Assembly (NCBI GenBank): GCA_030654225.1
Contig: JAURXY010000034.1
Span: forward strand, 25,184 to 89,183
Origin: a bacterium
GTDB taxonomy: Bacteria > Patescibacteriota > Minisyncoccia > Moranbacterales > UBA2206
DNA length: 64,000 nt
Reading direction: 5' to 3'
Shown: positions 3,817 to 60,357 of the stretch, piece by piece
How the letters are laid out: each line of letters begins with the position of its first letter
How positions within the stretch are numbered: the first letter of the stretch is position 1
The notes under the pieces: model-generated
What the model saw: the letters and a program-made list of their open reading frames with translations, nothing else
Databases searched by the model: none
Told to the model about the DNA's origin: nothing
Translations under genes and position numbers: made by a program

Positions 3817-4362
3817 ATGGAATTTATAAAAACCACTCTAAAAGACGCATACATAATCAAACCGCAAGTTTTTGGAGATAATCGGGGATTTTTTTTGGAG
3901 TCATATTCCAAGAAAAAATTTAAAAAAGAGGGGATTGGCGCAGAATTTGTGCAGGACAACCATTCAAAATCAGAAAAAAAAGGCACACTTCGCGGACTGC
4001 ATTTTCAAATTCCGCCATATACACAAGCTAAGCTCATCCGAGTTGTAAGTGGCAAAATTTTAGATGTAATCGTTGATCTTCGCCGTGACAGTGAGACTTT
4101 TGGAAAATGGGAGGTTTTCGAGCTATCAGCCGAAAATTTTCAAATACTTTTCGTTCCGCAAGGTTTTGCTCATGGTTTTATGACACTAGAAGATAACACG
4201 GAAGTTTTATATAAAGCGGACAATTTTTATGAGCCTTCGCATGAAGGAGGAATTGCCTGGAATGATCCAGATTTGAAAATTAACTGGCCACTAGAAAATC
4301 CGATTCTTTCCGAGCGCGACACCAAATGGCCTAATTTGAAAAATTTAGATAATCCGTTTTAA
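3817..4362 (+). CDS. rfbC: dTDP-4-dehydrorhamnose 3,5-epimerase
   Basis: 181 aa; 'RGLHFQ', 'FVPQGFAHGF' and 'DNRGFF' motifs of RmlC cupin epimerases. Confidence 0.9.
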   Translation: MEFIKTTLKDAYIIKPQVFGDNRGFFLESYSKKKFKKEGIGAEFVQDNHSKSEKKGTLRGLHFQIPPYTQAKLIRVVSGKILDVIVDLRRDSETFGKWEVFELSAENFQILFVPQGFAHGFMTLEDNTEVLYKADNFYEPSHEGGIAWNDPDLKINWPLENPILSERDTKWPNLKNLDNPF

Positions 4363-18328: not shown

Positions 18329-18769
18329 CTATTTCTTGTCTATAAAAAGCATTCCGTTTAAATGATCAATCTCGTGTTGCAAGGCTCGCGAGAGAAGTCC
18401 TTCGGCTTTGATTTCAATTTTTTCTCCTTTTTTATCCAAGGCCTTCACGGTGACTTTTTTGTGTCTCTTGACTGGGATAAATTTTCCAGGAAAAGATAGA
18501 CAACCCTCTTCGCAAATTTCTTTTCCCCAAGATTTTCGAGCAATTTTCGGGTTGATTAGAATATGCGTTTTTCCATCTAATTTTATAATACAAAGTTGCA
18601 CTGATTGTCCCACTTGCGGAGCAGCCAAGCCCAAAGCATTGCCACTTTCTTCCATAGTCGCAATCATATCCAAAATCAAGTCTTTGATTTCTCGACTTTT
18701 TGGTTCTTTTATCTTCTTCGCTTTTTGACGAAGAATTTCATTAGGATAGGTTATTATTGGTAATATCAT
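18329..18769 (-). CDS. def: Peptide deformylase
   Basis: 146 aa; 'GLAAPQVG', 'EGCLSFPG' and 'HEIDHLNG' motifs. Confidence 0.95.
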   Translation of the reverse strand: MILPIITYPNEILRQKAKKIKEPKSREIKDLILDMIATMEESGNALGLAAPQVGQSVQLCIIKLDGKTHILINPKIARKSWGKEICEEGCLSFPGKFIPVKRHKKVTVKALDKKGEKIEIKAEGLLSRALQHEIDHLNGMLFIDKK

Positions 18770-18775
18770 ATTTTA

Positions 18776-18872
18776 TGTCATCTCCGCGTAGGCGGGGATC
18801 TAGTGTATAGATTAAGTTTATTGCGATAAAAATTATTTTTATGACTGGATTCCCGTTTTCACGGGAATGACA
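18776..18872. mobile_element. MITE-like element, family A, copy 2
   Basis: tgtcatctccgcgtaggcggggatc ... ggattcccgttttcacgggaatgaca. The two copies flank def. Confidence 0.75.
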
Positions 18873-18877
18873 ATGCT

Positions 18878-20902
18878 TTAAATAATTGAAATTGGATCTC
18901 GATCGATTATCCAACCTGATTTGAGTTTTCTAATTTCTTTTTCTAATTCAATTGGAATTTTATCTGGAAATTTAACAATCATTTGCTTTCGCCAGCGTCC
19001 TCTGATTTTTGAGAGCAGGGGAGTGTGCGGTTCAGATATTTTTATTCCTTTTGCTGATTTTAATATTTCAAAAACTGCCAGACTTTCTTTTTCAACTTTT
19101 TCAAAATTATAATCCTGAAAAACCAATTTGACAATTTTCCCATACGGCGGAAAATTCAAAGCTTTTCGTTCCTCAATTATCTTTTGAAAAAAACTTTGAA
19201 AATTATTTTCTCCGGCCAATTGAATAATTTTATTTTCCGGTTGATATGTTTGAATAACCACTTCTCCAGGAAAGCGCGCTCCAGGGCGATTCACTCTCCC
19301 GGCAAGCTGAGAGATTATTTGAAAGGCCTTTTCTTCAGCCGAAAAATCAGGAAATGACAAAAGATTATCTGCATCTATTATACCAACCAATGACACGCGA
19401 GGCAAATCCCAGCCCTTGGAAATCATCTGCGTTCCAATCAAAATATCCGCCTCACCTTTGGAAAAAGCATCATAAATTTTTTCATGAAAATTTTGTTCTT
19501 TTGAAGAGGCTGTGTCAGCCACAATTATTTTGGCCGAAGGAAACAAACTCAAAATTTCTTTTTCTACTTTTTGCGTTCCCAATCCAACGTTTTTGAAACT
19601 TATCCCGCCACATTTCTCGCATTTTGGAAAAATACTCGTCTTATAATTACAATGATTGCATTTATAGAATCCGCCTTTTTCATAAACAAGCGCCCGCTCA
19701 CACTCAGGACACTTGAGCACTGCTTTGCACGCTTCACAAATTGAAAAACTACTCATACCTTGGCGATTGATAAACAAGATTGATTGCTGTTTATTTTTTA
19801 GCGCATATTCAATTTCACCTTTTAATTTTCTTGATATGCAAGTATAGTTTCCTGCCTGCCGATGAGGCAGGTTGGTCCAGCGTTCTTTTTTCATGTCAAC
19901 GATGGTGGTGTTTGGTATTTTATATTTAGTGTCTAATATTTCAAGATGTGGCAATTCTAATAATTTCAAATCTTTGTTAATCGCACGATAATATGATTCG
20001 ATACTTGGCGTAGCTGAGCCACGAACGATTTTCGCTTTATGAATCTCAGCTAATTTTTCTGCCACCGTTCTAGCGTCGTAACGCGGATTCATATCCCACT
20101 GTTTGAAAGACATATCCTGTTCTTCATCAATCACAATAAGCCCGAGTTTTTTAAACGGCGCAAAAACCGCCATGCGAGTACCAATAACTATTTTTATTTT
20201 TCCTGATTGAATGCCTTGCCAAGTAGAAAAAATCTGTCCCTTGGAAATATTACTACTTAAAACCCCAATTTCTTCCGGCTTAAAATATGCACCATATCTT
20301 TCCATGGCCTGCGGAGTCAAAGTTTTTTCTGGGATAATAATCAGAAATTGAAAATTCTTATTTATTTTTCTTAATTCAATAATTGAATTTATATAAACCT
20401 CCGTCTTCCCCGATCCCGCCGGACCAAAAAGCAAGTAATTTGTAATTGGTAATTTGTAATTGGTAATTTTTTTGACAGCATCTTTTTGCTCTTTTGTTAA
20501 TACAATATTTCCTCCTCTCCCTTCGGGAGAGGATGTCCGAAGGACAGGAGAGGGAGCTTTGCGTGATTTCATACGCTTTGGGACAAAATTTTTCATCACT
20601 ACACCCAATGGAGAAATATAATAATCAGAAATAAATTTTGCCAATTCTATTTGGCTATCGGAGAGAAAATTTTCAACGATTATTTTTTCAACTTTTTTTA
20701 GTTCAATATTACCCAATCTTTCAAAATCCTGCCTCGTCCCCAAAACAATTCCTTCCACACTTCGATGAAAAAGGGGAATCGAGACCAAGGTTCCAGTTGA
20801 AATTTTGACATCTGACAAATAGGAAAAAGACTGATGGGAAGACATCGGAATTTTTGTTAGTGGAACAATGTCGATAATAAACTTCTGCTTTTTGTTTGCC
20901 AT
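18878..20902 (-). CDS. priA: Primosomal protein N' (PriA helicase) carrying two in-frame hairpin insertions
   Basis: 674 aa; Walker A 'GPAGSGKTEVY', DEEQ box and a Cys4 zinc finger (CEACKAVLKCPECE...CNHC). Palindromes at 19851-19871 and 20511-20556 lie in-frame. Confidence 0.9.
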   Translation of the reverse strand: MANKKQKFIIDIVPLTKIPMSSHQSFSYLSDVKISTGTLVSIPLFHRSVEGIVLGTRQDFERLGNIELKKVEKIIVENFLSDSQIELAKFISDYYISPLGVVMKNFVPKRMKSRKAPSPVLRTSSPEGRGGNIVLTKEQKDAVKKITNYKLPITNYLLFGPAGSGKTEVYINSIIELRKINKNFQFLIIIPEKTLTPQAMERYGAYFKPEEIGVLSSNISKGQIFSTWQGIQSGKIKIVIGTRMAVFAPFKKLGLIVIDEEQDMSFKQWDMNPRYDARTVAEKLAEIHKAKIVRGSATPSIESYYRAINKDLKLLELPHLEILDTKYKIPNTTIVDMKKERWTNLPHRQAGNYTCISRKLKGEIEYALKNKQQSILFINRQGMSSFSICEACKAVLKCPECERALVYEKGGFYKCNHCNYKTSIFPKCEKCGGISFKNVGLGTQKVEKEILSLFPSAKIIVADTASSKEQNFHEKIYDAFSKGEADILIGTQMISKGWDLPRVSLVGIIDADNLLSFPDFSAEEKAFQIISQLAGRVNRPGARFPGEVVIQTYQPENKIIQLAGENNFQSFFQKIIEERKALNFPPYGKIVKLVFQDYNFEKVEKESLAVFEILKSAKGIKISEPHTPLLSKIRGRWRKQMIVKFPDKIPIELEKEIRKLKSGWIIDRDPISII

Positions 20903-20957
20903 AATTTAATTGTATCACTTTATTGCTAAAACTTCTAAAAGAAGCTACACTTTATAT

Positions 20958-21500
20958 ATGAAAAATAAGATATTTATCAGTATTAATCTTCCCTCAAAAG
21001 TCAAAAAAAGGCTGGTTTTGGCAACTGAAAAATGGCAAGAACTGCCAGTAAAATGGGAAAAAGAAGCTGATTTACACATAACATTGGTCTATTTAGGCTT
21101 TACCGATGAAGAAGTTGTCCTAGAGATTTGTGAAAAAGTCAAAAAATCTTGCGAGGATGTAGATATTTTTGACATTAAACTCGACCAAATTGAACTTTTT
21201 CCCTCTGCCGAAGAACCAAAAGTAATTGCCCTCACAGGAGAACCAAGCGAAGAATTGAAAAACTTAGTTAATGCGATTGAAAAAGAATTGGGAATCTCCA
21301 CTTCACCCAAAAAATCTTTTCGTCCGCACATAACACTGGGACGAGTAAAGAAACATAAATGGGAAGATTTGGAAAATAAACCTGAAATTTTGGAGAAATT
21401 TCCTTTGACTGTTGATGCCAACAGCGTTGATGTTATGACTAGTCAATTTAGTTCCAAGGAAAGTCGCTATTCTATTCTTGATTCTTGCCCGCTACAATAA
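20958..21500 (+). CDS. thpR: RNA 2',3'-cyclic phosphodiesterase / 2'-5' RNA ligase (2H family)
   Basis: Two H-x-T-x motifs ('HITLVYLG' and 'HITLGRV'). Start chosen at the internal ATG 20958. Confidence 0.75.
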   Translation: MKNKIFISINLPSKVKKRLVLATEKWQELPVKWEKEADLHITLVYLGFTDEEVVLEICEKVKKSCEDVDIFDIKLDQIELFPSAEEPKVIALTGEPSEELKNLVNAIEKELGISTSPKKSFRPHITLGRVKKHKWEDLENKPEILEKFPLTVDANSVDVMTSQFSSKESRYSILDSCPLQ

Positions 21501-23371: not shown

Positions 23372-24940
23372 ATGAACAAAATCAGAACTAGATTTGCGCC
23401 GTCGCCGACGGGATACTTGCATATTGGGGGTCTTCGGACTGCACTGTATGATTATTTATTCGCCAAAAAAAATGGTGGTGATTTTTTGTTGAAAATTGAA
23501 GATACTGATCGAAAAAGATTTGTTGAAGGTGCGGTGGAAAAATTAATAATTTCATTAGATTTTCTAGGATTGGAAAGAAATGAAGGAGTAATGTTAAACA
23601 ATAATACCAATGGTCAGGAATCAAAAAATTATCCCAGAGTTTTTGAAGTAGGCGAATATGGACCTTATATTCAATCAGAAAAATTAGAAATTTACAAAAA
23701 ACATGTTGATGAATTAGTGAAAAATGGCCATGCCTATTATTGTTTTTGCGAACCAAAAAGACTTGAGGAAATGAGATCTGAACAAACCGCCCAAAAACAA
23801 CCCCCTATTTATGATAGATTTTGTTTGCAAAATGTTAGCGAAGAAGAAATAAATAAAAATCTAAAAAATAATTGTCCCTATACTATTCGAATTAAAGTTC
23901 CGCACGACGAAATAATTGAAGTGGATGACGAAATCAGAGGACGCGTTAAATTTAATACTAATTTAGTCACCGATCAAATACTTTTGAAATCTGACGGCTT
24001 TCCCACTTATCATTTAGCTAGCATCATAGATGACCATGATATGCAAATCACACATGTTATTCGTGGCGAAGAATGGCTTCCGAGCATTCCAATTCATATT
24101 TTATTATATCGCTATTTCAATTGGGAAGCTCCGAAATTTGCTCACTTACCACTTCTTCTTAATCTAGACAAATCCAAACTTTCTAAGCGTCAGGGGGATG
24201 TGGCGGTGGAAGATTACATTAAAAACGGATATTTAAAAGAAGCTCTTATTAATTTTGTAGCCTTTTTAGGTTGGAATCCTGGGAAAGGAGAAACGCAAGA
24301 AATTTTCACGCTTGAAGAATTAGTGGAGAAATTTGATCTGACTCATGTTCACAAGGCGGGCGCAGTTTTTGACATCAAAAAATTAGATTGGATAAATTCA
24401 CAGTGGATCAAGAAACTTTCCATCGAAGAGTTATATCAAAAATCTTTGCCATTTCTTGAGGAAAAAGAATTTTATAAAAATGCTAGTGCAGAAAAAAAAT
24501 CCGAAGACTATATCAAAAAAATCCTTTCCATTGAACAGGACCGTCTCACAAATTTGTCAGAAGTGGGGGAGAGCAATCAGTTCTTTTTTAGGGATACAAA
24601 TTTTGACAAAGAACTTTTACGCTGGAAAGATATGAATGACGAAGACTTGAAAAAATCACTAGAAAAATCTCTCCGCGTTTTGGAAAATATAACGGACGAA
24701 AATTGGACGCGCGAAAATTTGGAAAAAATTCTGATGGAAAAGGCGGATGAAAAGCCTGCCTCGCCGGCTCGCCTCGCTGGAGCTATGGCGAAGCGGGCAG
24801 GCGGGAGGGGAGAGCTCCTCTGGCCACTGCGCGCCACGCTTACGGGAGAGAAAAAATCACCTTCACCATTTGAATGTGCGTGGGTGCTTGGGAAAGAAGA
24901 AACATTATCGAGATTAAAAAATACAATAGGCAAAATATAA
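23372..24940 (+). CDS. gltX: Glutamyl-tRNA synthetase with a GC-rich, MITE-derived in-frame insertion
   Basis: 522 aa; 'RFAPSPTGYLHIGG' and 'KLSKR' motifs. The 24751-24850 segment shares about 30 nt with the MITE family A arm. Confidence 0.9.
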   Translation: MNKIRTRFAPSPTGYLHIGGLRTALYDYLFAKKNGGDFLLKIEDTDRKRFVEGAVEKLIISLDFLGLERNEGVMLNNNTNGQESKNYPRVFEVGEYGPYIQSEKLEIYKKHVDELVKNGHAYYCFCEPKRLEEMRSEQTAQKQPPIYDRFCLQNVSEEEINKNLKNNCPYTIRIKVPHDEIIEVDDEIRGRVKFNTNLVTDQILLKSDGFPTYHLASIIDDHDMQITHVIRGEEWLPSIPIHILLYRYFNWEAPKFAHLPLLLNLDKSKLSKRQGDVAVEDYIKNGYLKEALINFVAFLGWNPGKGETQEIFTLEELVEKFDLTHVHKAGAVFDIKKLDWINSQWIKKLSIEELYQKSLPFLEEKEFYKNASAEKKSEDYIKKILSIEQDRLTNLSEVGESNQFFFRDTNFDKELLRWKDMNDEDLKKSLEKSLRVLENITDENWTRENLEKILMEKADEKPASPARLAGAMAKRAGGRGELLWPLRATLTGEKKSPSPFECAWVLGKEETLSRLKNTIGKI

Positions 24941-26795: not shown

Positions 26796-28004
26796 TTATT
26801 TTTTATTATTTAAATAGAAATCCCTAAGCACATTGCCAGAAACTTTTCTTAATTTTTCCACTGATCCCTTGATTACTTTCACAGCATAATCAATTTCTTT
26901 TTTGGTCGTATTTTTTCCGAGCGTCAATCGCAGTGACCCATGCGTTTCTTCCGGTTTCAAACCAAGTGCCAAAAGCACATGCGATGGAGAAAGCGATCCT
27001 GATGAACAAGCAGAACCAGTCGAAGCAAAAACTCCTTCTTGCGAGAGCATCATAAGTAGACTCTCCCCTTCTACTCGCGAAAAATTTACATTCACATTAT
27101 TTGGTGATCTTTTTATTTTCGAACCATTCAATCTTGAATCCGGAATTTCTTTGAGAATTTTTGCAATTAAATAATCTCTTAACTTTTGAATTTGCATATT
27201 GTTCTTTGTTCTTTGATCATTGATCATTGATATTGCACTTCCAAGACCAACAATTCCTGGCGTATTAATTGTGCCTGCGCGCAATCCAAATTCTTGCGCC
27301 CCACCATCTTGAATTTTGGCTATATTAAGCCCAAATTTGGCATATAACGCCCCCACTCCCTTTGGTCCATATATTTTATGCGCTGACATTGAAAGTAAAT
27401 CCACGCCTAATTTTTCCACATTACAATCAAAATAATTTACCGCCTGCGTCGCATCGGTATGGAAAATTATTTTAGCATTATTTTTTTTAATCATTTTTCC
27501 AATTTCGGAAATTGGTTGCACAGTGCCAATTTCATTGTTAACATACATCATAGAAACAAAAATTGTATTTGACTTGATCGCATTTTTTATATCCGCAACA
27601 CTTATAACCCCGTCTTTTTTTGGATTGATAAACGTTGCTTCGATTAGATTTTCTTTTTCCATTTTCTTCACTGTCTCCAAAACACAATGATGTTCAAAGG
27701 TAGTCGTGATTACATGTGGTTTCTTTTTTTCTTTTTTATAATACGCTTTCACCACTCCCTTTATAGCAAGGTTATTCGATTCGGTTGCGCCACTGGTAAA
27801 AATAATTTCATTTAAATTAGCATTGAAATATTTTGCCACTTGCATTCTGGCTTTTTCCACTGCTTGATCCGCTTCTTGACCAAAAGAATGAAGTGATGAA
27901 GCATTGCCAAAATTCTGACTAAAATACGGTATCATTTCCTTTAATACTTTTTTGTCTATCGGTGTAGTCGCTGCGTGATCTAAATAAATTGTTTTTTTTG
28001 TCAT
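26796..28004 (-). CDS. iscS: Cysteine desulfurase (IscS/NifS)
   Basis: 'YLDHAATTP' plus PLP lysine 'SAHKIYGPKG' and 'SACSSGS'. The ORF's first ATG (28019) lies inside the MITE terminus, so the second ATG (28004) is chosen. Confidence 0.9.
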   Translation of the reverse strand: MTKKTIYLDHAATTPIDKKVLKEMIPYFSQNFGNASSLHSFGQEADQAVEKARMQVAKYFNANLNEIIFTSGATESNNLAIKGVVKAYYKKEKKKPHVITTTFEHHCVLETVKKMEKENLIEATFINPKKDGVISVADIKNAIKSNTIFVSMMYVNNEIGTVQPISEIGKMIKKNNAKIIFHTDATQAVNYFDCNVEKLGVDLLSMSAHKIYGPKGVGALYAKFGLNIAKIQDGGAQEFGLRAGTINTPGIVGLGSAISMINDQRTKNNMQIQKLRDYLIAKILKEIPDSRLNGSKIKRSPNNVNVNFSRVEGESLLMMLSQEGVFASTGSACSSGSLSPSHVLLALGLKPEETHGSLRLTLGKNTTKKEIDYAVKVIKGSVEKLRKVSGNVLRDFYLNNKK

Positions 28005-28013
28005 AAAATGTTT

Positions 28014-28092
28014 TGTCATTCCCGTGAAAACGGGAATCTAGTCTCAAATCACTAAGTTTCTACACTAGATTCCCGCCTACGCGGGAATGACA
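28014..28092. mobile_element. MITE-like element, family B (TIR tgtcattcccg / cgggaatgaca), copy 1
   Basis: tgtcattcccgtgaaaacgggaatctagtctcaaatcactaagtttctacactagattcccgcctacgcgggaatgaca; between iscS and iscR. Confidence 0.75.
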
Positions 28093-28096
28093 GAGG

Positions 28097-28501
28097 TTAG
28101 TTTTTTATTAAATCGCTCAATTTTATTCCATACAAAGTTTTTCTAATTTGCTCACCTAATTTTATCCACACGAAACTGGAAGCACATTTTTTCATCGCCG
28201 AGCAATGTATTCCTTGGCATTTGGCTGTCATCGGCCCTTCCATGATCTCAATAATCTCCCCCGCAGAAATTTCTTTCGGTTTTCTCGCCAAGACATACCC
28301 ACCATTTTTTCCTTTGATACTTTTGACTAATCCACTCTTTCGCAAATCACCAATCAATCTTTCCAGATATTTAGCCGAGATTTTTTCTTCTATTGATATC
28401 TCTTTTATATTCTTAATTTGAGGATAATTACGCGCCAAATTAACTATTGCTCGAAGCCCATATTCCCCTTTTGTTGATATCTTTAACATTTGTTTATTCA
28501 T
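28097..28501 (-). CDS. iscR: Rrf2-family transcriptional regulator (IscR-like)
   Basis: 134 aa; wHTH 'KGEYGLRAIVNLA' and C-terminal Cys cluster 'CQGIHCSAMKKC'. Confidence 0.85.
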   Translation of the reverse strand: MNKQMLKISTKGEYGLRAIVNLARNYPQIKNIKEISIEEKISAKYLERLIGDLRKSGLVKSIKGKNGGYVLARKPKEISAGEIIEIMEGPMTAKCQGIHCSAMKKCASSFVWIKLGEQIRKTLYGIKLSDLIKN

Positions 28502-28582
28502 ACTAATTTAGTATGCTTTAATTATAATCTTTTTGAAATAATCTGTCAACAGTGTTATAATTAAAATGTAATTGTAATTTTT

Positions 28583-28662
28583 ATGTCATCCTCGCGAATG
28601 CGGGGATCCAGTCTCAAATCATTAATTTTCTACACTAGATTCCCGCATTCGCGGGAATGACA
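28583..28662. mobile_element. MITE-like element, family B, copy 2
   Basis: tgtcatcctcgcgaatgcggggatccagtctcaaatcattaattttctacactagattcccgcattcgcgggaatgaca. The two copies flank iscR. Confidence 0.75.
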
Positions 28663-28671
28663 AAAATTTTT

Positions 28672-29796
28672 ATGCGTATATCATACAGCGCCTTTGATGC
28701 CTATCAAAATTGCCCACTGAAATATAAATTTCAAAATATTGACCACATTAAGGTGCCCAAATCCAAGGAGGCGGTTTTTGGCTCGACAATCCACGAGACA
28801 ATGAAGTTTATCCATACTCCTGGCATTCTCTCCCCTACATTAGATCAAGCCATGGAACATTTTTCCAACTCTTGGAATCCGGCAGTTTTTGACGGAGAAA
28901 TGGAGGAGCGCGCCGCTTTTTCTCAGGGCGTAAAAATTATTCAGGACTACTATCAAAAAAATAATCCCGCAGATTTTAATATCATCAATTTAGAATCACG
29001 CTTTCAAATTGAAATTGGGCCGGAAAATGATCGGCATATTATCTCCGGCATCATCGACCGCATCGACAAAACTGAAGACGGTTTTGAAATTATTGATTAT
29101 AAAACTACCAAGAAAATGCCTAACCAAGAAAAAGTTGACAACGACATTCAACTTTCCGTTTATCTCCAAGCATTTCTCTCTAATTATCCTAAAGAAATTG
29201 AAAATCTGGATAAGATAAAAGTAAGTTTGTATTTTTTAAAGCATGGCGTTAAACTTTCTGCCACAAGAACTTTGGAGCAACTGAAAAAAAGCGAGCGACT
29301 TTTTTTAGACACTATAAAAGTCATCGAGGCTGGCAATTTTGAACCGACTATGTCCCCTCTTTGCGATTGGTGCGGATACCAAAATCTTTGCCCGATGTGG
29401 AAACATAAATTCAAGGAACTGCGCCATATCGACACAGAGGAAATTAATAAATCAATCGAAGAATATATTGATCTAAAATCAGCCATCGCTATGACGAAAG
29501 ATAGGATGGCTAAACTACAAGAAGATATTCTGGGTTATATGGATCAAGAAGGCGTGGAAAGAGTTTTTGGTCCGCAAGGCGTCATTGCCAGGTCACTTCG
29601 TAAGACTTATAAATACGACGAGAAAAAACTCCGCGAAGTTTTGGAACCGCTGGATCATTGGGAAGATGTGCTAAAAGTAGATGGCATTGCACTGCGAAAT
29701 ATTCTGGGTGTCTTACCATTTGAAGCCAAAAAAGAAATTGAAAAAGCTAAAGTTCTCGACAAAGAAACTAAAAGTTTAAGCGTGAAGAAAAAATGA
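28672..29796 (+). CDS. PD-(D/E)XK nuclease (Cas4/RecB-like Fe-S nuclease domain) with an ~140-aa C-terminal extension
   Basis: N-terminal Cys 'AYQNCPLKYKF'; 'IIDRID...EIIDYKT' catalytic D/E-K; C-terminal 'CDWCGYQNLC' cysteine triad. The first ATG (28657) lies within the MITE terminus, so 28672 is preferred. Confidence 0.7.
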   Translation: MRISYSAFDAYQNCPLKYKFQNIDHIKVPKSKEAVFGSTIHETMKFIHTPGILSPTLDQAMEHFSNSWNPAVFDGEMEERAAFSQGVKIIQDYYQKNNPADFNIINLESRFQIEIGPENDRHIISGIIDRIDKTEDGFEIIDYKTTKKMPNQEKVDNDIQLSVYLQAFLSNYPKEIENLDKIKVSLYFLKHGVKLSATRTLEQLKKSERLFLDTIKVIEAGNFEPTMSPLCDWCGYQNLCPMWKHKFKELRHIDTEEINKSIEEYIDLKSAIAMTKDRMAKLQEDILGYMDQEGVERVFGPQGVIARSLRKTYKYDEKKLREVLEPLDHWEDVLKVDGIALRNILGVLPFEAKKEIEKAKVLDKETKSLSVKKK

Positions 29797-29843: not shown

Positions 29844-30152
29844 ATGAAACAATATTGTGTTTACATTATTACTAATAAACTAAATAAAGTTTTTTATATT
29901 GGATTTACTGGAAATTTACCAAAAAGAATTTACGAACATAAAAATAAATTAGTAAAAGGATTTTCTGAAAAATATAATTTAACAAAATTAGTTTATTTTG
30001 AGCAAACAACGGATGTTTATTCTGCTATCTCCAGAGAAAAACAACTAAAAAATTGGCACAGGGATTGGAAAATAAACCTGATAACTAAAAGTAATCCGGG
30101 TTGGATAGATTTGTATGACACATTATTAGATGCTGAAACAAGTTCAGCATGA
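29844..30152 (+). CDS. GIY-YIG nuclease-domain protein (stand-alone, about 100 aa)
   Basis: 'VYIITN...FYIGFTGNLPKRIYEHK' GIY-YIG motif. The ORF's 3' end overlaps the downstream hairpin element. Confidence 0.75.
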   Translation: MKQYCVYIITNKLNKVFYIGFTGNLPKRIYEHKNKLVKGFSEKYNLTKLVYFEQTTDVYSAISREKQLKNWHRDWKINLITKSNPGWIDLYDTLLDAETSSA

Positions 30153-30680: not shown

Positions 30681-30727
30681 ATTAAAAGGCATACGCAGTT
30701 ATGAACTGGATGCCTTTTTTGTTTTGT

Positions 30728-30800
30728 TGCTCTGGCAGGGATTTGAACCCCGGACTAAGACATTGACAGTGTCTTGTTCTGACCGCTGAACTACCAGAGC
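30728..30800 (-). tRNA. tRNA-Asp (anticodon GTC)
   Basis: Reverse complement folds as a 73-nt cloverleaf: acceptor GCTCTGG/CCAGAGC, D-arm GTTC/GAAC, anticodon stem AGACA-CTGTCAA-TGTCT, T-arm CGGGG-TTCAAAT-CCCTG, discriminator A. Confidence 0.85.
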
Positions 30801-30809
30801 ATAAAAAAT

Positions 30810-30896
30810 TGGCGGGAGAGAGAGGATTTGAACCTCCGTCATAAGGGATTATGTGTTGACCCTTCATCCTATCCATAATTTCTAGACGACTCTCCC
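30810..30896 (-). tRNA. tRNA-like gene with canonical acceptor/T-arm and encoded CCA, but non-canonical D/anticodon region
   Basis: Reverse complement: GGGAGAG...GGAGG-TTCAAAT-CCTCT-CTCTCCC-G-CCA. The middle region (52 nt) does not give a standard 5-bp/7-nt anticodon arm. AAGGG[12 nt]CCCTT is the only clean stem. Confidence 0.5.
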
Positions 30897-31000
30897 AAAA
30901 GAACAACATCTTAATAAAAAATCCTAGCATAACGCTAGTCTTTTTGTCAAGTATTAAAAAAGTAAAAATCCTATTCACTAATAAACTAATCAACTATTCA

Positions 31001-31708
31001 CTATCTTATCACCGTCCCTTGAAATTCCTTCTCCTCTAAAATATTTTTCAAATTCTTTAAATTTTTTCCTTCGGCAATGATGACCTCAAGATTGTTTTCC
31101 TGGGCAAGTTTTGAAGCTACTGGATCAAAAGGCATATTGAGTCCTGGGTCCCAACGATTGCCAACAATTTTGCGAAAATTTTTCCAATTAATTTCTTTGA
31201 TTATTTTAGCATCCGGATATTTTTTCGGATCTTTGTCGCAAGCATATTTAATGTTGGAAAGATTGATGAGTTTTTTAGCGCCCAGTCTTTCTGCGATAAT
31301 TGTGGCGACATAGTCAGTGGACGCTCCTGGCTTCCAACCAGCAGCCACCATAATCCCCTCCCCAGCCGCAAAGTGAGTGGATAAATTTTCTTTAGTGCGC
31401 GGGTTTTTGTTGATTCTTGGATGAGCATAGGCACGAAAAATAGTTTTCACTAAATGCGCATTGAGTCTTGTTGCATGAATACCTAGCCAGTCTTGGTCAT
31501 CCTTGGTAAGTTTAGTCACTTTATTAGCTGCTTGCGCATATTCCCTCGCCGCATATCCCCCGCCCGTAATAATCGCAAATTTTTTGCCTTTCTTAATTTC
31601 TGAGACTATCAACTCGCGAAACTTTTTCAAAAACTGCCAATCGATTCTTTTTGGAACGATTAGTGAACCTCCGAGAGAAATTACAATGATATTATTTTTA
31701 TTATTCAT
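31001..31708 (-). CDS. pyrH: Uridylate (UMP) kinase
   Basis: 235 aa; 'ISLGGSLI', 'ITGGGYAARE' and 'AAGEGIMVAAG' amino-acid kinase motifs. Confidence 0.9.
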   Translation of the reverse strand: MNNKNNIIVISLGGSLIVPKRIDWQFLKKFRELIVSEIKKGKKFAIITGGGYAAREYAQAANKVTKLTKDDQDWLGIHATRLNAHLVKTIFRAYAHPRINKNPRTKENLSTHFAAGEGIMVAAGWKPGASTDYVATIIAERLGAKKLINLSNIKYACDKDPKKYPDAKIIKEINWKNFRKIVGNRWDPGLNMPFDPVASKLAQENNLEVIIAEGKNLKNLKNILEEKEFQGTVIR

Positions 31709-46966: not shown

Positions 46967-48081
46967 AAAAGATACTTCTAGTAACGAGGCCAATTGCCCC
47001 GCCGTGGGACGAAGGTTCAAAAAATTTCGCCTATTACCTAGCAAAAAATCTAGCAGGTTTTGAAATTAATTTAATGACTAAAGGAATTTTGTCCGGACTA
47101 TCTGATAATGTTCACCAGCATTCGGTTTATTCAACTTCAGAAATTCGCGATTTCAATTTTTCACAAAAGCTTCGCGCGCTTCTTTTCCAATTCAAAACCA
47201 AAGGCAAGTTCGATATCAATCACTATTTTTTCACTCCAACAAAACTCAACTCCTTCCTGATTAAGCATTTTTTCAAATCATCCAAAACTAAAACTATTCA
47301 AACTGTCGCTTCTCTTCGTGATGACTTGTGGTCGTCGGATGATATTCGAAAATTGATGTTTGCAGATCTCATCATCACCTATTCTGATTATGCCAAGAAC
47401 AAATTAAATTCACTTGGATTTCAAAATGTCAAAAGGGTTTATCCAGGAATTGATCTGGAAAAATATCAACTACAAGAAAGAAACTTGGAGCTTATGCAAG
47501 AAAAAAACATTTCGCCAACGGACTTTGTGATAAATTTCACTGGCGAGTATGTGCGCCTTGGTGCGATTGATTTAGTGATTGACAGTTTTATCGAAATTTC
47601 CAAAAAAATTCCCGAAGCCAAACTCACTCTAGCAGTTAGAATCAAAAACGAAAAAGACGCTCAGAAAAAAGAAGAGGTTATGGAAAAGATCAAAAAAAGT
47701 AATCTTCTGGAAAAAGTTTCTTTTTTTGATAATGGTAAATATGATATGCCAGAAGTTTATAATCTTTGCGACATTAGTCTTTTCCCAGTACAAAATATGC
47801 ACGGAAAATTTGATATCCCTCTCGCTGTTATCGAAACGATGGCCTGTGAAAAACCAGTCATCTTAACAGATTTGGAAATTCTAAAAGAATTGGGAAATAA
47901 TAATAACTCTGTTATAATTGAGAAAGACAATCTAAAACAATTGACTGACGCAATTTTTGATTTATACCAAGACACAGAAAAAAGAAAAATGCTCGGGAAA
48001 AATGCTAGAAAGTTTTGTGAGGAAAATTTCGACATAAAAAATATAGCTAGGGCTTATGAAAAAATATATGAACAATTATAA
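46963..48081 (+). CDS. GT-B fold glycosyltransferase (GT4-like, divergent)
   Basis: 372 aa; C-terminal 'FPVQNMHGKFDIPLAVIETMACEKPVILTDL' resembles an EX7E region. Confidence 0.55.
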   Translation: MKKILLVTRPIAPPWDEGSKNFAYYLAKNLAGFEINLMTKGILSGLSDNVHQHSVYSTSEIRDFNFSQKLRALLFQFKTKGKFDINHYFFTPTKLNSFLIKHFFKSSKTKTIQTVASLRDDLWSSDDIRKLMFADLIITYSDYAKNKLNSLGFQNVKRVYPGIDLEKYQLQERNLELMQEKNISPTDFVINFTGEYVRLGAIDLVIDSFIEISKKIPEAKLTLAVRIKNEKDAQKKEEVMEKIKKSNLLEKVSFFDNGKYDMPEVYNLCDISLFPVQNMHGKFDIPLAVIETMACEKPVILTDLEILKELGNNNNSVIIEKDNLKQLTDAIFDLYQDTEKRKMLGKNARKFCEENFDIKNIARAYEKIYEQL

Positions 48082-49570
48082 TTTTGAAAATTTAAACGAA
48101 AACAAAAAAAAGTTCCAAACGGAAAAAATGAAAGTGCCGGCTATTTTTTTTATGAGTGAAGATTTAATACCTAAGGATGATTCTTTCGAAAAATTAGAAG
48201 ATATTGCTTCTAATCAAGATACACTTTTCCGTAATTTAGTCGCTATGCCTGATGTTTGTTCAAAGCCAGGCAGGAAAAATGCTTCCGGAACAACTATAGT
48301 CAGCGAAAATTACATACTGCCTCAAGTTAATGACTCAGACCCAAACTGTGGAATGCGTCTAATTAAAACTAATTTAACTGAAGATAATCTAACTAGTAAT
48401 GATATTGAAAATATTTTCAAGGAATTAGTAAGCACCGTTCCAACTAAAAAATTCGTCGGAACCAAAGTCCCTTTTAATGTTGTCGTTGATATTTGTCGAG
48501 AAGGAACATCCGCCATAATCAAACATCTCGGAATCAAAACAAAAAACGAACTCGAAAACACTCAGGATGGTGGTAATTTTTTCGGACGTATTATGGAAAG
48601 AAAAGATATTTTTGATGTAATACCAAAGCTGTACTTGTTTTTTGCGCGGTATCGCTTGGGAATTTTAGGCGCAGCTGGAAACCATTTTTCAGATCTTATG
48701 AAAGTAGATGAGATTATAGATTCCGAAATTGCCAAAAAAATGGGAATAGAAAAGGGACAGTATCTCTTTATGATTCACACTGGTTCAGGAATTTTGGGAC
48801 AATACACAATGTATACTCATACTGCCAAGAAACGCGAGCATCTTTCACAAGCTCTTATGGTAACACTTGGAAAAATGACTTTCAATTCCAGAAAAAAAGA
48901 AACTTATAAAAAGATGCAACAAAAAATAAAATTGCATATGTCAGGAGAAGAATCACTGCTTAGATATGACGGCAACGGAGAGGATGGAGAATTATATATG
49001 AACGCGCGAGCAGCCGCTTCTAATTTCGGCACTGCCAATAGAGCTGTTATCACTCACAATATCTCCGAAACGATAAAAAAAGTTCTTGGGCGTGACCCCG
49101 AAATGGATTTGATCTATGACATGCCTCACATTTCAATTTCCAAGGAAGAACATTTTGGGCGTGAAGTTTTTGTTCACCGAAGCAACACTTCAAGAGCATA
49201 TGGCCCTAGCAAGATGAAAAGTCATCCGATTTACGGCGAAACCGGCGAACCTGTCTTTATTCCATCTTCAATGGCCACTGACGCCTACATTTGCGTCGGA
49301 ACAGATGAAAATCAAGACAGTTTTTTCTCAGCTCCTCATGGCACCGGCAAAGGAACTAACGATAATGAAAAAACCATTGCCAATAAAGATGACCTTTTCG
49401 CCAAAATGAAAGAAAAAAATATCCGTCTTTACAATGCCCAATCTTCCATTGTTATCAATCAAGATTCTTCTCGATACAAAAATATAGACAAAGTAATTGA
49501 AGGTATTGAAGCCAACAAAATCGCTCACATTGTAGCAAAAATGAAACCCGTAGCGGTTATAATGTATTAA
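48056..49570 (+). CDS. rtcB: RtcB-family RNA ligase (divergent)
   Basis: 'AMPDVCSKPG', 'DPNCGMR' and 'HTGSGILGQ' are RtcB-like motifs, with C-terminal 'KMKPVAVIMY'. The start may instead be at 48128 (MKVPAIFF). Confidence 0.65.
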   Translation: MKKYMNNYNFENLNENKKKFQTEKMKVPAIFFMSEDLIPKDDSFEKLEDIASNQDTLFRNLVAMPDVCSKPGRKNASGTTIVSENYILPQVNDSDPNCGMRLIKTNLTEDNLTSNDIENIFKELVSTVPTKKFVGTKVPFNVVVDICREGTSAIIKHLGIKTKNELENTQDGGNFFGRIMERKDIFDVIPKLYLFFARYRLGILGAAGNHFSDLMKVDEIIDSEIAKKMGIEKGQYLFMIHTGSGILGQYTMYTHTAKKREHLSQALMVTLGKMTFNSRKKETYKKMQQKIKLHMSGEESLLRYDGNGEDGELYMNARAAASNFGTANRAVITHNISETIKKVLGRDPEMDLIYDMPHISISKEEHFGREVFVHRSNTSRAYGPSKMKSHPIYGETGEPVFIPSSMATDAYICVGTDENQDSFFSAPHGTGKGTNDNEKTIANKDDLFAKMKEKNIRLYNAQSSIVINQDSSRYKNIDKVIEGIEANKIAHIVAKMKPVAVIMY

Positions 49571-51642: not shown

Positions 51643-53262
51643 CTATTTAACCTTCAAAGCAAAAACTGAAAATTGGCGAAAGATTGAACATTTTTCAATG
51701 TCATATTTTTTTGCTATCTCTTGGGAAAGCTCGCATTTAGCCGAAGCATTTTTAAGATAGAATAGCTTGTCTCCTGAGTTTAATTTAATTTCTTTTCTAA
51801 GTTGAATTATTTCAATTTGTTCTTTCCCTGCTAAAAACTGAAGTGAGCGAAGAGATTTGAAAAGATAACCAGCTTGCGCATCAATGTAGGCTGTTTTATT
51901 TTCTGAATTATTTTTGATAAAATCAACGATATATTTCCCCTCTCCTAAAGTCAGATAATCAAAATCTCCATTGATTTCTCTTCCGCCATATTGCAAATCT
52001 TTATAGGTATAGAATATTTTTTGCAAATTGAAAGATGAAAAAATGGCAATAATAGCTATCGCAACCCACAAGCCTTTTTTGAATTTTTTCTCAAAAAAAT
52101 TCAACCAAAATCCCAAGATCAGCAATGGAATAAATAACAACGGCAAAAAGAAACGAACCGCCAATTCAGTGGCCCAAGTTATATAGAAAAGAAAAGACAA
52201 TATTATATAACTAGATATAAGCCCCAGGAAAAGTTTTTTATTCCTATCGCTTTCTTTTATAGCTTTTTTAAATAAGAGAAAATATCCACCCAAAGAAAAT
52301 ACTAGCGACAAAATAATCAAAACAACAAAACTTGCTTTTTCTCCTATGGTCATCCTTGTTCCATCTAACTTTTTGAAAATTTTCCAATCATTTTCATACC
52401 CGCATTCATTTTCATTGCCTAATGATGTGAGGATGTGATTATTGGTTTTGATATGACAAGAAAAATTCAAAAGCAAATTATTCGCCCAACTTCCATTTCG
52501 TTCATTCTTGCTGGTAATTCCCAAAATAAACTGATATGAATTAGCCCCACCGCTTCTAACTTCACTTACAATCTGGGGAATATTAACAAAAATAGTGGAC
52601 GCCACAATGATTACTATTGCCGTTGCTGAAATTATTTTTTTCTTGAAAAAGATAATCGCCGTGAAAAAAGAAAGCACTGGAAGGATTATCAAAAGCGAAG
52701 TATGCAATTGAATGCAAATTCCCAGAGATATTCCTGTCAAAATTGCCCAGGCAATTTTTCTTTTTTGTAAAATTGCCAAATTATAAAGTGCGTAGATAAA
52801 AAGCATCACAAAAAACGGGGTGGAATTTGGATTCCAAGCAAAACGAGAAAATTTAATCGCAAAATATGAAATTGAATACAGCCAAGCCAAAGCCAATGCG
52901 ATGGGAATTTTGAAATAAATTTTTGCTAAAAGAAAAAACATCCCGATTGACAAAATAGAAAAAAATAAATCCGGATAAGCTACTTTTTCCGGCTCTGCCC
53001 CAAATATTTTCGCTGAAACTAACTGAAAATAATAGAATGCTGGGCCAAGCAAAAATTCTGTTCCGCCTGCTCCAGGACCAAGATCTGGCAATCTGTTATT
53101 TTCGCTTAAATTTTCTATCAATTCCACATCGCGCGATTGATCCATATTGAATCTGAGCCAATCAGAAAAATGATAGGTACGCAAAAATATTCCCACTAAA
53201 ATAATCAGCATCAATAATATTGCGACTTGATGTTTTTTTATTTTTCCAAAAAAATTATTCAT
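51643..53262 (-). CDS. ArnT/PMT-like membrane (GT-C fold) glycosyltransferase, subfamily A, paralog 1
   Basis: 539 aa; N-terminal 'FLRTYHFSDWLRFNMDQSRDV' loop motif and 'GPAFYYFQ'. Polytopic; 'FAWNPNS'. Confidence 0.65.
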   Translation of the reverse strand: MNNFFGKIKKHQVAILLMLIILVGIFLRTYHFSDWLRFNMDQSRDVELIENLSENNRLPDLGPGAGGTEFLLGPAFYYFQLVSAKIFGAEPEKVAYPDLFFSILSIGMFFLLAKIYFKIPIALALAWLYSISYFAIKFSRFAWNPNSTPFFVMLFIYALYNLAILQKRKIAWAILTGISLGICIQLHTSLLIILPVLSFFTAIIFFKKKIISATAIVIIVASTIFVNIPQIVSEVRSGGANSYQFILGITSKNERNGSWANNLLLNFSCHIKTNNHILTSLGNENECGYENDWKIFKKLDGTRMTIGEKASFVVLIILSLVFSLGGYFLLFKKAIKESDRNKKLFLGLISSYIILSFLFYITWATELAVRFFLPLLFIPLLILGFWLNFFEKKFKKGLWVAIAIIAIFSSFNLQKIFYTYKDLQYGGREINGDFDYLTLGEGKYIVDFIKNNSENKTAYIDAQAGYLFKSLRSLQFLAGKEQIEIIQLRKEIKLNSGDKLFYLKNASAKCELSQEIAKKYDIEKCSIFRQFSVFALKVK

Positions 53263-55048
53263 TCATATTTATATCACTGGTTAATTCCTCATCTTCTTCA
53301 ATAGTTTGTTTTTTTATCCCAAAAACATCCTTCCAAAAAAGTCGATCAGTTTTGGAATATTTTTTGTTAAACCTAAAATTCTTGGAAATGTTTCTCTCTG
53401 GAAAATTTATCTCATAAACTGAAATTTGTCCACAATCTTGAGAAGACAATATTTCAACTGGCACCCCATATTTTTTTTCTAAGGCTTTTTTTGGCTCCGT
53501 GTCAGAAGGAATAGTTGCAAAATATTGGGCGTTAGGATTATCATTCAAACTCAAAGTTTCATAAACAAAATTAGGATCATTTTTTTGCGCCAAAATATAT
53601 TTTATCGGATTTATATGCTCCGGCTTAGTATAAAAATAACTCGTATCGCCAGTTTTTCTTTTTGTATATATAAAATCGGCCACTTTTTGCAGTTCACTCA
53701 AGGTCACACCATCTTTTGTTTTCAAAATCAAAGTGCGGTTTATTTCCACATCCTTGATTTGAGACTGCTTCATTTCCGAAAACCACGCCAGCGTTCCATA
53801 CACATTCAAGCTAAATATAATGATTGCGACTGCCGAAATAGGATACGCTGATTTTTTCGGCCATCTTTCTTGAAAAAAATTAAATACTACTCCGCTCAAC
53901 AAAAATGGCACAGCAAAAACCAAGATAAAAAATCTTGGACGAAGTTGAAAAGAAACTGGGAAAGTAAAAATGAAAAACACACCTATCCACAAAAACAACA
54001 GTGCCAAAAAATTTCTTCTGCTAGAATCTTTTTCTCTCCTTAGGGCTCGTGCCGACAAAATTATTCCGGAAGAAATAAGGATAATTGTGAGAATTGACGG
54101 CAAATCATTATTTGTGCCATCAAACGGCTCACCTTCTCCGCAAAAAGAAGTAGTGATGAGACAATAATATTTGGTATTCTCAGAAAAATTTTTGGAAATT
54201 TTTTCTGCAAATGATTTGTCTTTTGCTTTGGAACTCAAAGCTTGAATGAAATTTCCGGCATTTTCCCCTTTTCTCATCACATCACTTATAATCACAGGCG
54301 AATAAATCAAAGCAAAAACAGAAATAAAAACCAAAGAATAAATGGCTATTTTTTGCAAAATATTTTTTTGGAATATATCCTTGATTTTTTGCAATTTCCA
54401 AAACTGACTATGAAACAAAATCAAACATCCGGAGATAGCGGTGAGCACAAAGAAACCAAAAAAATGCAGTTGTGATCCGATAGAAAGTCCGAGTACCCAA
54501 ATAATGAGCCAACCTATTTTTCTTTTGAGCTTTTGTTCACTCAGAAACTTCAGGAGTCCAAAAAAAGTCAATAAGGCAAAAAATTGCAACGGATTAGGAT
54601 TCCAAGCAAAACGAGAATATTGAATCACAATGAAAGAAAAAGCATACATCGCCATAGTAAGCAATGAAATATTTTTGGAAAAATAAATTCTCGCCAGAAA
54701 ATACAGCAGGACTATCGCCAAGATTGAAAAAAATAAATCCGGATAGGCAAAAACTTGCGGGGCAGTAGAGTTGGAAATGGCACCCGCGATATATTGAAAA
54801 TAATAATAGGCGGGACCGAGTCTCAAAAATCCACTATCCACTTCGGTTGCACCGGCTCTTGGCCCCAAAAGCGGAAGCATCATTGGTCCTTCATTTATCG
54901 CATGACTAACGAGTTGCGCATCACGCGATTGATCCATTTTGAAATATAGCCAATCGGAAAAATTGTAAAAACGGAAAGCAAAAGCACCGATAACTATCGC
55001 TAGCATAATAATCGTAACGGCATATTTTTTGGTTAGTAAGTTTTTCAT
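53255..55048 (-). CDS. ArnT/PMT-like membrane (GT-C fold) glycosyltransferase, subfamily A, paralog 2
   Basis: 597 aa; 'FYNFSDWLYFKMDQSRDAQL', 'GPAYYYFQ' and 'FAWNPNP'. Confidence 0.65.
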   Translation of the reverse strand: MKNLLTKKYAVTIIMLAIVIGAFAFRFYNFSDWLYFKMDQSRDAQLVSHAINEGPMMLPLLGPRAGATEVDSGFLRLGPAYYYFQYIAGAISNSTAPQVFAYPDLFFSILAIVLLYFLARIYFSKNISLLTMAMYAFSFIVIQYSRFAWNPNPLQFFALLTFFGLLKFLSEQKLKRKIGWLIIWVLGLSIGSQLHFFGFFVLTAISGCLILFHSQFWKLQKIKDIFQKNILQKIAIYSLVFISVFALIYSPVIISDVMRKGENAGNFIQALSSKAKDKSFAEKISKNFSENTKYYCLITTSFCGEGEPFDGTNNDLPSILTIILISSGIILSARALRREKDSSRRNFLALLFLWIGVFFIFTFPVSFQLRPRFFILVFAVPFLLSGVVFNFFQERWPKKSAYPISAVAIIIFSLNVYGTLAWFSEMKQSQIKDVEINRTLILKTKDGVTLSELQKVADFIYTKRKTGDTSYFYTKPEHINPIKYILAQKNDPNFVYETLSLNDNPNAQYFATIPSDTEPKKALEKKYGVPVEILSSQDCGQISVYEINFPERNISKNFRFNKKYSKTDRLFWKDVFGIKKQTIEEDEELTSDINMNE

Positions 55049-55095
55049 AATTTGCTATTTTAGTTTAAGCCAAAAATTATAATTTGGCAAAAAAA

Positions 55096-56721: not shown

Positions 56722-56723
56722 AT

Positions 56724-58382: not shown

Positions 58383-58464
58383 AAATATACTATCTTTACA
58401 ATAAGCCTATTTTTAATTATATTATATACAGATAGATTGTCAAAGTTTAATCTCAATAAAAATT

Positions 58465-60342: not shown

Positions 60343-60357
60343 ATCTTGCTTTGTTTT

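Follow-up and report, generated by a model that had tools for sequence, protein, structure and literature searches.

What kind of gene occupies positions 30810-30896 on the minus strand of a 64,000-nucleotide (nt) stretch of contig JAURXY010000034.1 (positions 25,184 to 89,183, GenBank assembly GCA_030654225.1; lineage Moranbacterales of the Patescibacteriota), where the ends are those of a tRNA and the interior is irregular? This whole stretch is referred to below as the window, and the element as the tRNA-like gene. It is shown here to be a true derivative of a tRNA gene, intact in its core and enlarged in two loops, which shares a small inserted unit with a gene for tRNA-Asp, and this core result is the same whether the gene is regarded as a relic, as a selected RNA, as an exotic decoder or as a precursor from which nucleotides are removed. 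The tRNA-like gene almost certainly cannot read codons. The reading adopted here, in which our confidence stays somewhat short of even, is that of a recent tRNA copy, transcribed but no longer able to decode, that travels with tRNA-Asp and is in function a transcribed pseudogene.

A tRNA body with two enlarged loops

The minus strand of 30810-30896 is GGGAGAGTCGTCTAGAAATTATGGATAGGATGAAGGGTCAACACATAATCCCTTATGACGGAGGTTCAAATCCTCTCTCTCCCGCCA, 87 nt including an encoded CCA. In a search restricted to a 351-nt region, it matches the Rfam tRNA family RF00005 at 35.9 bits (E = 4e-6) over model positions 1-71, which is the full length of the model, and because this end-to-end alignment exceeds the curated gathering score of 29 bits, the gene is real and not a chance resemblance. 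Detection by Rfam needs such a short region as search space; two scans of the whole window do not report the gene, which is dropped in the speed filters. ARAGORN, one of the tRNA finders that the initial annotation had proposed as a check, gives no call in its default, intron and relaxed modes, and only at 80% stringency does it return a model, that of an intron-containing tRNA-Phe(GAA). The motif GGTTCRANTCC is found twice in the window, with 0.2 occurrences expected.

Read from 30896 to 30810, the whole gene is GGGAGAG-UC-GUCU-AGAAAUUAUGGAUA-GGAU-G-AAGGG-UCAACACAUAAU-CCCUU-AUGAC-GGAGG-UUCAAAU-CCUCU-CUCUCCC-G-CCA. The 5' strand of the acceptor stem, GGGAGAG (30890-30896), forms seven of seven Watson-Crick pairs with CTCTCCC at 30814-30820 and is followed by U8-C9 and the D arm (30866-30889), in which the stem GUCU (30884-30887)/GGAU (30866-30869) closes a loop of 14 nt (30870-30883). 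Next come G26 and the anticodon arm (30843-30865), with the stem AAGGG (30860-30864)/CCCUU (30843-30847) around a loop of 12 nt (30848-30859), and the Rfam alignment then places the 5-nt variable loop AUGAC (30838-30842, with A44, G46 and C48) and the T arm (30821-30837, with G53-C61, U54, U55, C56 and A58), after which the sequence ends in the discriminator G73 and the encoded CCA (30810-30813). The perfect 7-bp acceptor stem, the T arm GGAGG-TTCAAAT-CCTCT, G73 and CCA described in the initial annotation are thus all confirmed on the minus strand, as are its stem AAGGG/CCCTT around the 12 nt TCAACACATAAT and its variable loop ATGAC, and its suggestion of a class-I body with about 5 extra nt in the anticodon loop is supported by the Rfam alignment. 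It was also correct that the D region is longer than standard, the excess being 5-6 nt in the covariance-model alignment, but not that a standard D arm cannot be folded, since the covariance model and inspection give the normal 4-bp D stem GUCU/GGAU.

All 21 of the 21 stem pairs are standard, three of them being G-U, and every core base is kept, namely U8, A14, R15-Y48, G18-G19, A21, G53-C61, U54-U55-C56 and A58; with C48 present in the variable loop, a G15-C48 pair is possible. The abnormal features are limited to the sizes of the D loop and the anticodon loop. In the 14-nt D loop, which is not of normal size, the gap from G15 to G18 is 7 nt rather than 1-3, and according to both the covariance model and inspection the excess of 5 nt is confined to this interval. 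The 12-nt anticodon loop lacks U33 and any usable anticodon and hence departs from the pattern of a 7-nt loop with U33, a 3-nt anticodon and a purine at position 37. For anticodon loops 7 nt is the rule, and the only enlarged natural one described has 8 nt, while a D loop of 8-11 nt is given for tRNA-Ser (PMC7609411).

Compared with a canonical class-I elongator tRNA as modelled by RF00005, the gene is alike in its 7-bp acceptor stem, 4-bp D stem, 5-bp anticodon stem, 5-nt variable loop, T arm and G73-CCA, and differs in the two loops; standard finders miss it. Editing of the sequence leads to the same point: ARAGORN rejects the native gene and all versions with a single repaired loop, and accepts it at default stringency once both loops lose 5 nt, so the two enlarged loops are the sole obstacles to a tRNA call. 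The question raised in the initial annotation, whether there is a standard cloverleaf with a defined anticodon, hence receives a divided answer, as a class-I cloverleaf is found by Rfam but no standard anticodon can be defined in it.

Several other assignments were tried and rejected. A class-II tRNA (Ser/Leu/Tyr type), of which an unusual example had been among the initial candidates, needs a variable arm of at least 10 nt, and the variable region here is 5 nt without an arm. A tRNA-Sec is described as having a D stem of 6 bp around a loop of 4 nt, the anticodon UCA, a long variable arm and an acceptor/T branch of 8/5 (or 9/4) (PMC7609411); the tRNA-like gene has a 7/5 branch, a 4-bp D stem with a 14-nt loop and a short variable loop. 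A tmRNA reading was rejected, and so was a chimera generated by integrase crossover, because both strands of every stem still match.

Possible decoding, excision and folding of the enlarged loops

Frameshift suppressor tRNAs have anticodon loops of 8-9 nt. The yeast mitochondrial tRNA-Thr(UAG), with its 8-nt anticodon loop, resembles the tRNA-like gene in having an otherwise normal cloverleaf with extra loop bases (PMC7609411). Both kinds differ from it in that they carry one or two extra bases, have an anticodon that can still be recognised and have been demonstrated to decode, whereas here five extra bases are accompanied by an expansion of the D loop. The heptamer within the 12-nt loop that comes nearest to an anticodon loop is CACAUAA, which differs at position 33 only (U33 to A) from CUCAUAA, the loop of the Met/Ile2 type. 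A working translational tRNA with a non-standard anticodon loop could be envisaged on this basis, for example with A41-U49 closing CACAUAA (anticodon CAU) above a 3-nt bulge, or as a larger-loop decoder of an unusual codon or frame; ARAGORN calls a tRNA-Met when the CACAUAA loop is substituted, and enlarged loops of 8 nt can decode (PMC7609411). We regard such a decoder as improbable. U33 is missing in every reading, a lone A-U pair above a 3-nt bulge is an unstable closure, the discriminator is G73, whereas A73 is usual for tRNA-Met, and all 58 ORFs (open reading frames) of the window translate normally in code 11 and give no hint of recoding. Moreover, no natural decoder with a loop of more than 8 nt is described in the review of non-canonical tRNAs (PMC7609411).

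Alternatively, the extra nucleotides could be removed from the RNA by cleavage and re-ligation to yield a normal tRNA, which would imply an unseen mini-intron or insertion-processing pathway in the candidate phyla radiation. A small probability is kept for such processing because genes for RtcB (48056-49570, 241 bits) and for a LigT-type 2',5'-ligase/phosphoesterase (20910-21500) are present in the window. That rRNA genes of candidate phyla radiation bacteria are known to carry insertions counts in its favour, and that RtcB and LigT are common bacterial RNA-repair genes counts against it. The tRNA-Phe(GAA) model of ARAGORN also offers a 15-nt intron at the canonical position 37/38. However, no bulge-helix-bulge can be drawn, the 5' splice site of the model would fall within the paired AAGGG/CCCUU stem, the product after splicing has a mismatched D stem, no G18-G19 and a variable loop of 3 nt, and no splicing endonuclease domain is present among the 58 window ORFs scanned. 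Two separate 5-nt excisions would be required, and no contiguous 5-nt deletion in the anticodon loop restores U33 or yields a canonical loop, all of them giving C33 with AUA, AAA or AAC as the 'anticodon'. Taken together, removal at the RNA level is very improbable.

The intron-containing tRNA contemplated in the initial annotation fails on size, as 5 nt is too short for a group I intron or a bulge-helix-bulge intron. Group I introns are roughly 200 nt or more, and this candidate was rejected with an excess of 5 nt only and no group I intron match in Rfam. An archaeal/eukaryal-type intron was rejected since the 15-nt ARAGORN model lacks 3-nt bulges around a 4-bp helix and leaves two mismatches in the D stem, no GG and a 3-nt variable loop. 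Archaeal-type intron tRNAs, with a bulge-helix-bulge handled by EndA plus RtcB, resemble the present case in the extra nucleotides near the anticodon loop and in the RtcB gene of the window; they differ in that here there is no bulge-helix-bulge, the insert is too short, the host is bacterial, no endonuclease is seen and excision does not give a canonical tRNA. As a separate observation, the occurrence of both the RtcB gene and the LigT-type gene in a small candidate phyla radiation genome bears on its capacity for RNA repair or splicing.

It is scarcely credible that the two loops owe their oddity to a mistake of assembly or consensus in this metagenome-assembled genome, the real gene being an ordinary tRNA. 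Artefacts of this general kind do exist, as the D loops of some tRNA-Glu genes in metagenome contigs contain tandem duplications that are artefactual (L080, L082 and L086, one of them with an NN gap), and the source is a metagenome-assembled genome with a single contig record. Against this, the extra bases are not tandem copies of their flanks, two separate sites would have been hit while 21 base pairs stayed perfect, removal of 5 nt from the anticodon loop never gives a canonical loop, and the surrounding synteny is clean.

The two enlarged loops are complementary to each other over 6 bp, AUUAUG in the D loop (30879-30874) facing CAUAAU in the anticodon loop (30853-30848). Because the inserted segments are complementary, the predicted minimum-free-energy fold is a rod built on the acceptor/T-arm base (-26.5 kcal/mol), as compared with -22.8 kcal/mol for the cloverleaf, or -25.4 when an extra C9-G26 pair is added, and the inter-loop pairs have a probability of about 0.70 in the computed ensemble. 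When the loops are shuffled, at least six contiguous pairs arise in 4.5-5% of trials (P ~0.045-0.05), and the whole-molecule folding energy is unremarkable (z = -1.3); the loop complementarity is thus marginal and suggestive only. A search of the window for the complement of the 12-nt anticodon loop returned only the tRNA-like gene itself.

The tRNA-Asp unit and the slot downstream of pyrH

The tRNA-like gene is the promoter-proximal member of a unit of two. About 25 nt upstream of it lies a sigma-70-type promoter-like site (30921-30950, minus strand), TTGACA, 18 nt and TG-n-TAGGAT, with 10/12 matches and an extended -10, and downstream, after a spacer of 9 nt by Rfam coordinates (30801-30809, minus strand; ATTTTTTAT / AUUUUUUAU), follows the second gene, tRNA-Asp(GUC) (30728-30800, minus strand), a canonical cloverleaf according to ARAGORN with 70.2 bits in Rfam, with A73 and no encoded CCA. 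The distance between the two had been given as 10 nt, and ARAGORN makes it 8 nt. A terminator-like hairpin, AAAAGGCAU...AUGCCUUUU (30684-30718, inverted repeat I7), lies between tRNA-Asp and the convergent DUF2062 gene. The encoded CCA sets the tRNA-like gene apart, since it is encoded neither by the adjacent tRNA-Asp nor by any of the Patescibacteria tRNA genes in the fetched loci (0/10).

The tRNA-Asp gene has a peculiarity of its own. While tRNA-Asp usually has G73, A73 is found here, and the base preceding G1 is U, which could pair with A73. Both tRNA genes are also crossed by a 103-codon ORF (30682-30993, minus strand) that has no homologue among 5.8 billion proteins; it is spurious and should not be annotated as a gene.

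The unit lies downstream of pyrH (31001-31708, same strand) and not upstream of it, as first described. A comparison at the syntenic position, also envisaged in the initial annotation, was made through a pyrH scan of 185,579 reference genomes, and it shows that relatives keep the flanks but not the tRNA pair. The relatives found through pyrH assign the window to Candidatus Moranbacteria. The nearest of them (L001-L008, L030 and L100-L102) have about 89-93% pyrH identity. No relative is closer than 93.6%, and the gene order kept among relatives is pyrG, L27, pyrH, the slot, DUF2062 and a PD-(D/E)XK nuclease, with flanks conserved on both sides of the insert. The content of the slot itself varies: a small membrane ORF is found in L001, L002, L004, L006 and L007, a different, promoter-driven small ORF in L003, L005, L008 and L030, a dCMP deaminase gene in L100 and tRNA-Glu(CUC) in the more distant L032, while in L102 the slot is empty and pyrH lies 17 nt from DUF2062. 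No tRNA-like remnant was found in the slots of these near relatives, and a relaxed pattern scan of the relatives' loci returned noise and known tRNAs only.

The pyrH-DUF2062 gap (window 30681-31000) may thus be described as a gene-swapping hotspot with at least six contents among L001-L008, L030, L032 and L100-L102, bounded by a conserved post-pyrH segment and a conserved terminator hairpin; the tRNA pair marks this small hotspot in Moranbacteria. In one relative, L006, a GC-richer stretch (3940-4240) stands beside the small ORF, has its own TTGACA box and looks structured, with no Rfam match at E <= 0.001.

Similarity of the window to its relatives ends at about 30960-30945 and resumes at about 30721, which delimits an insert of about 225 bp (approximately 30722-30945, minus strand) whose entire content is the -10 region, a leader of about 18 nt and the two tRNA genes with the spacer between them. 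At its flanks a search for the usual marks of an integrated element, direct repeats and duplicated 3' ends of tRNA genes, found neither. The terminator-like hairpin is kept in L008, L030 and L006, all of which lack the tRNAs, and the first 40 nt or so beyond the stop codon of pyrH are conserved in L003 and L030 as well, both of which have TTGACA soon after. On this comparison the hairpin is an ancestral feature of the slot and, like the sequence just upstream of the insert with its TTGACA box in relatives, older than the insert, and the tRNA pair is lineage-specific and appears to be a recent arrival in a hypervariable slot.

The neighbourhood is one of housekeeping genes, and no gene for an aminoacyl-tRNA-dependent transferase, a toxin or a defence function occurs among the 58 window ORFs scanned. 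The gene for GluRS (23372-24940) is 6 kb away from the tRNA-like gene, and its proximity is treated as a coincidence because in relatives, which lack the tRNA, synteny is preserved to either side of the slot.

Origin of the RNA and its possible selection

The isotype from which the gene derives is ambiguous, because its D arm is of the Glu type but its acceptor and T arm are nearer to those of tRNA-Ser, tRNA-Asn and tRNA-Trp. The D arm (U8-C9, GUCUAG...GG.UA-GGAY) carries the tRNA-Glu signature UCGUCUAG...GGAY and matches the tRNA-Glu(CUC) of L032; among 149 ARAGORN tRNAs from loci not selected on the motif, UCGUCUA at this position is found in 3/8 tRNA-Glu and in 1/141 others. Identity of tRNA-Glu, from work in E. 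coli, depends on an augmented D helix (U11-A24, U13-G22) and a YUC anticodon. The D-helix features U11-A24 and U13-G22 are present in the tRNA-like gene, whereas a UUC/CUC anticodon is absent, position 47 is present and the acceptor is unlike that of the L032 tRNA-Glu. The same acceptor with G73 is seen in viral tRNA-Ser, tRNA-Asn and tRNA-Trp and is therefore not diagnostic of isotype, and BLAST with the 3' third of the gene finds phage tRNA-Ser genes and unannotated chromosomal sites in Mycoplasmopsis and enterobacteria.

In the reading as a young, non-decoding copy, the promoter-like site would drive transcription of the tRNA-like gene and tRNA-Asp as one precursor, from which RNase P would remove the leader of about 18 nt and would also cut in the spacer of 9 nt, at the start of tRNA-Asp. 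The resulting RNA would end in the encoded CCA and fold either as an L-shaped tRNA or as the competing rod held by AUUAUG:CAUAAU. It would remain unused on the ribosome and is probably uncharged: the anticodon or other marks on which synthetases of G73 tRNAs depend are absent from the tRNA-like gene, and it also lacks G3-U70, a long variable arm, A73 and G-1, which are marks that permit anticodon-independent charging. Its persistence could be explained by its youth and by its place in the same transcription unit as a needed tRNA-Asp.

This reading is supported by the absence of a usable anticodon loop and by what seems to be a recent arrival in a fast-turnover slot, the gene being absent from all sequenced relatives. 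Aberrant tRNA genes are frequent in variable regions and proven cases of non-decoding tRNA-like genes are rare, which is also counted for a relic. The loop sizes, in addition, go beyond those of any natural non-canonical tRNA in the review (PMC7609411). Pseudogenes and aberrant genes of tRNAs in bacterial regions that are variable or mobile are alike in their low covariance score, undeterminable anticodon and location in a hypervariable slot that close relatives fill differently or leave empty, and they differ in that the tRNA-like gene has no stem damage, encodes its CCA and sits in an apparently functional transcription unit with tRNA-Asp.

Several of these features weigh against a mere relic. 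Two insertions and the loss of U33, three events at the minimum, fell within about 16/76 canonical positions and left the 21 stem pairs and all conserved core bases intact, and such intact stems fit purifying selection on the fold better than neutral decay, the lack of stem damage arguing against long decay. CCA is encoded contrary to the 0/10 of the clade and to the neighbouring tRNA-Asp, and the gene is the one nearest to the promoter. The argument from missing homologues, moreover, is weak, since it comes from exact-motif scans, and the 185,579 reference genomes were not scanned for the tRNA itself.

The same features lead to a different explanation, which we take seriously and yet find doubtful, that of a selected, non-decoding tRNA-like RNA whose body is kept for RNase P, the end-processing enzymes and possibly a synthetase or a tRNA-binding protein. 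The remodelled loops would then serve a task off the ribosome, as a decoy or regulator of a tRNA-binding factor or as an amino-acid carrier, and the RNA may switch between the L-shape and the rod. Perfect stems, retention of all bases making tertiary contacts with changes in two loops only, a CCA encoded contrary to the habit of the clade, a position directly behind the promoter-like site, and inserts whose 6-bp complementarity lets a rod compete with the cloverleaf (about 0.70 in the ensemble) are all in keeping with it. On the other side, the complementarity is marginal by shuffling, the neighbours are housekeeping genes with no adjacent candidate partner gene, the marks for anticodon-independent charging are missing, the closest sequenced relatives manage without the gene, and with no homologue found there is neither covariation nor conservation to draw on. 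The pseudogene and the mimic, both named in the initial annotation, therefore stay a live pair of explanations.

Dedicated or non-decoding tRNA-like RNAs are known, among them the cell-wall tRNA-Gly isoacceptors of Staphylococcus, tRNA-Other of Bacillus cereus and the tRNA-like domains of tmRNA and YrlA. In these a tRNA body is likewise kept for processing or recognition, and use on the ribosome is reduced or lost. They differ in being conserved families with demonstrated roles, most with a 7-nt anticodon loop or no such arm, whereas for the tRNA-like gene the searches gave no homologue and no adjacent candidate partner gene.

The search for relatives of the RNA covered several collections. 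Exact and degenerate patterns of the anticodon arm, the D arm, the 3' end, the loop plus T loop and tRNA-Asp gave nothing real in 2.9 million viral contigs, where single matches (L079 and L103) are chance and not tRNA-like. BLAST of the tRNA-like gene against phages and plasmids gave matches limited to the generic T arm and acceptor. A scan of JGI metagenomes for a D arm of the Glu type with 5-14 additional bases in its loop, together with a T loop, in which exact matches to three D-arm/T-loop motifs were required, returned seven loci, none of them homologous; these include three tRNA-Glu with assembly-type tandem duplications, a broken one and a different family (L085). A literature search on tRNA oddities or introns in candidate phyla radiation bacteria, or on very large anticodon loops, gave nothing specific. 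A homologue was thus not found rather than shown to be absent, as the motif searches were narrow and the reference genomes were scanned for pyrH and not for the RNA.

The different family is an observation in its own right. In L085 (JGI contig Ga0255039_10004642, 4146-4532, minus strand) three tandem tRNA-Glu-like genes share a common acceptor stem, carry a 4-bp UUCG-capped mini-hairpin in the D loop and have a 5-bp 'anticodon' stem closed by 5 nt. Between copies, 6/26 predicted pairs are changed on both sides; Rfam gives tRNA scores of 38-39 bits for two of the three, ARAGORN misses all three, and the neighbouring ORFs have no Pfam match, the context being probably viral. The Glu-type D stem, the enlarged D loop, the non-canonical 'anticodon' loop and the failure of ARAGORN are shared with the tRNA-like gene. 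The differences are the UUCG hairpin after G18-G19, an anticodon loop reduced to 5 nt rather than enlarged, a sequence similarity limited to the tRNA-Glu D stem, and the different, probably viral context. L085 suggests that structurally constrained, non-decoding look-alikes of tRNA-Glu exist in uncultivated genomes and escape standard finders, and as an independent case it lends some support to a selected RNA. The stronger proposition, that a candidate phyla radiation bacterium keeps under selection a tRNA-bodied RNA that toggles between L-shape and rod and works off the ribosome, and that together with L085 it represents an unrecognised Glu-type tRNA-like class, we hold to be unlikely.

What the locus means depends on this choice. 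As no more than a disabled copy of a tRNA, it would be of interest chiefly to annotation, since ARAGORN and filtered Rfam searches skip it and a spurious 103-codon ORF covers it. If it is under selection, it would represent a bacterial mimic of tRNA, its loops well beyond the size range of every functional tRNA documented, and a renewed scan of candidate phyla radiation genomes, using models that tolerate insertions, would be justified to look for tRNA-like RNAs unseen by current pipelines.

Other unusual tRNA-shaped genes were met in large viral contigs, namely three of 121 nt (L090 659-779, L096 298-418 and L097 1204-1324) in which the acceptor and T arms are perfect and the anticodon region is longer by roughly 48 nt; they are possibly intron-bearing phage tRNAs. 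Within the window, a small GIY-YIG nuclease ORF (29844-30152) lies in an insertion of about 400 bp that is absent there in L001, L002, L003 and L030. Intergenic repeats of about 120 nt (18761-18886, 27996-28111 and 28562-28680) match on both strands, have related copies in L006 and give sub-threshold Rfam matches to WsnRNA46. Finally, six consecutive large paralogous membrane glycosyltransferase genes of the PMT_2/PMT family (51643-62253) adjoin a GT1/GT2/GT4 cluster and an O-antigen-ligase-like gene.

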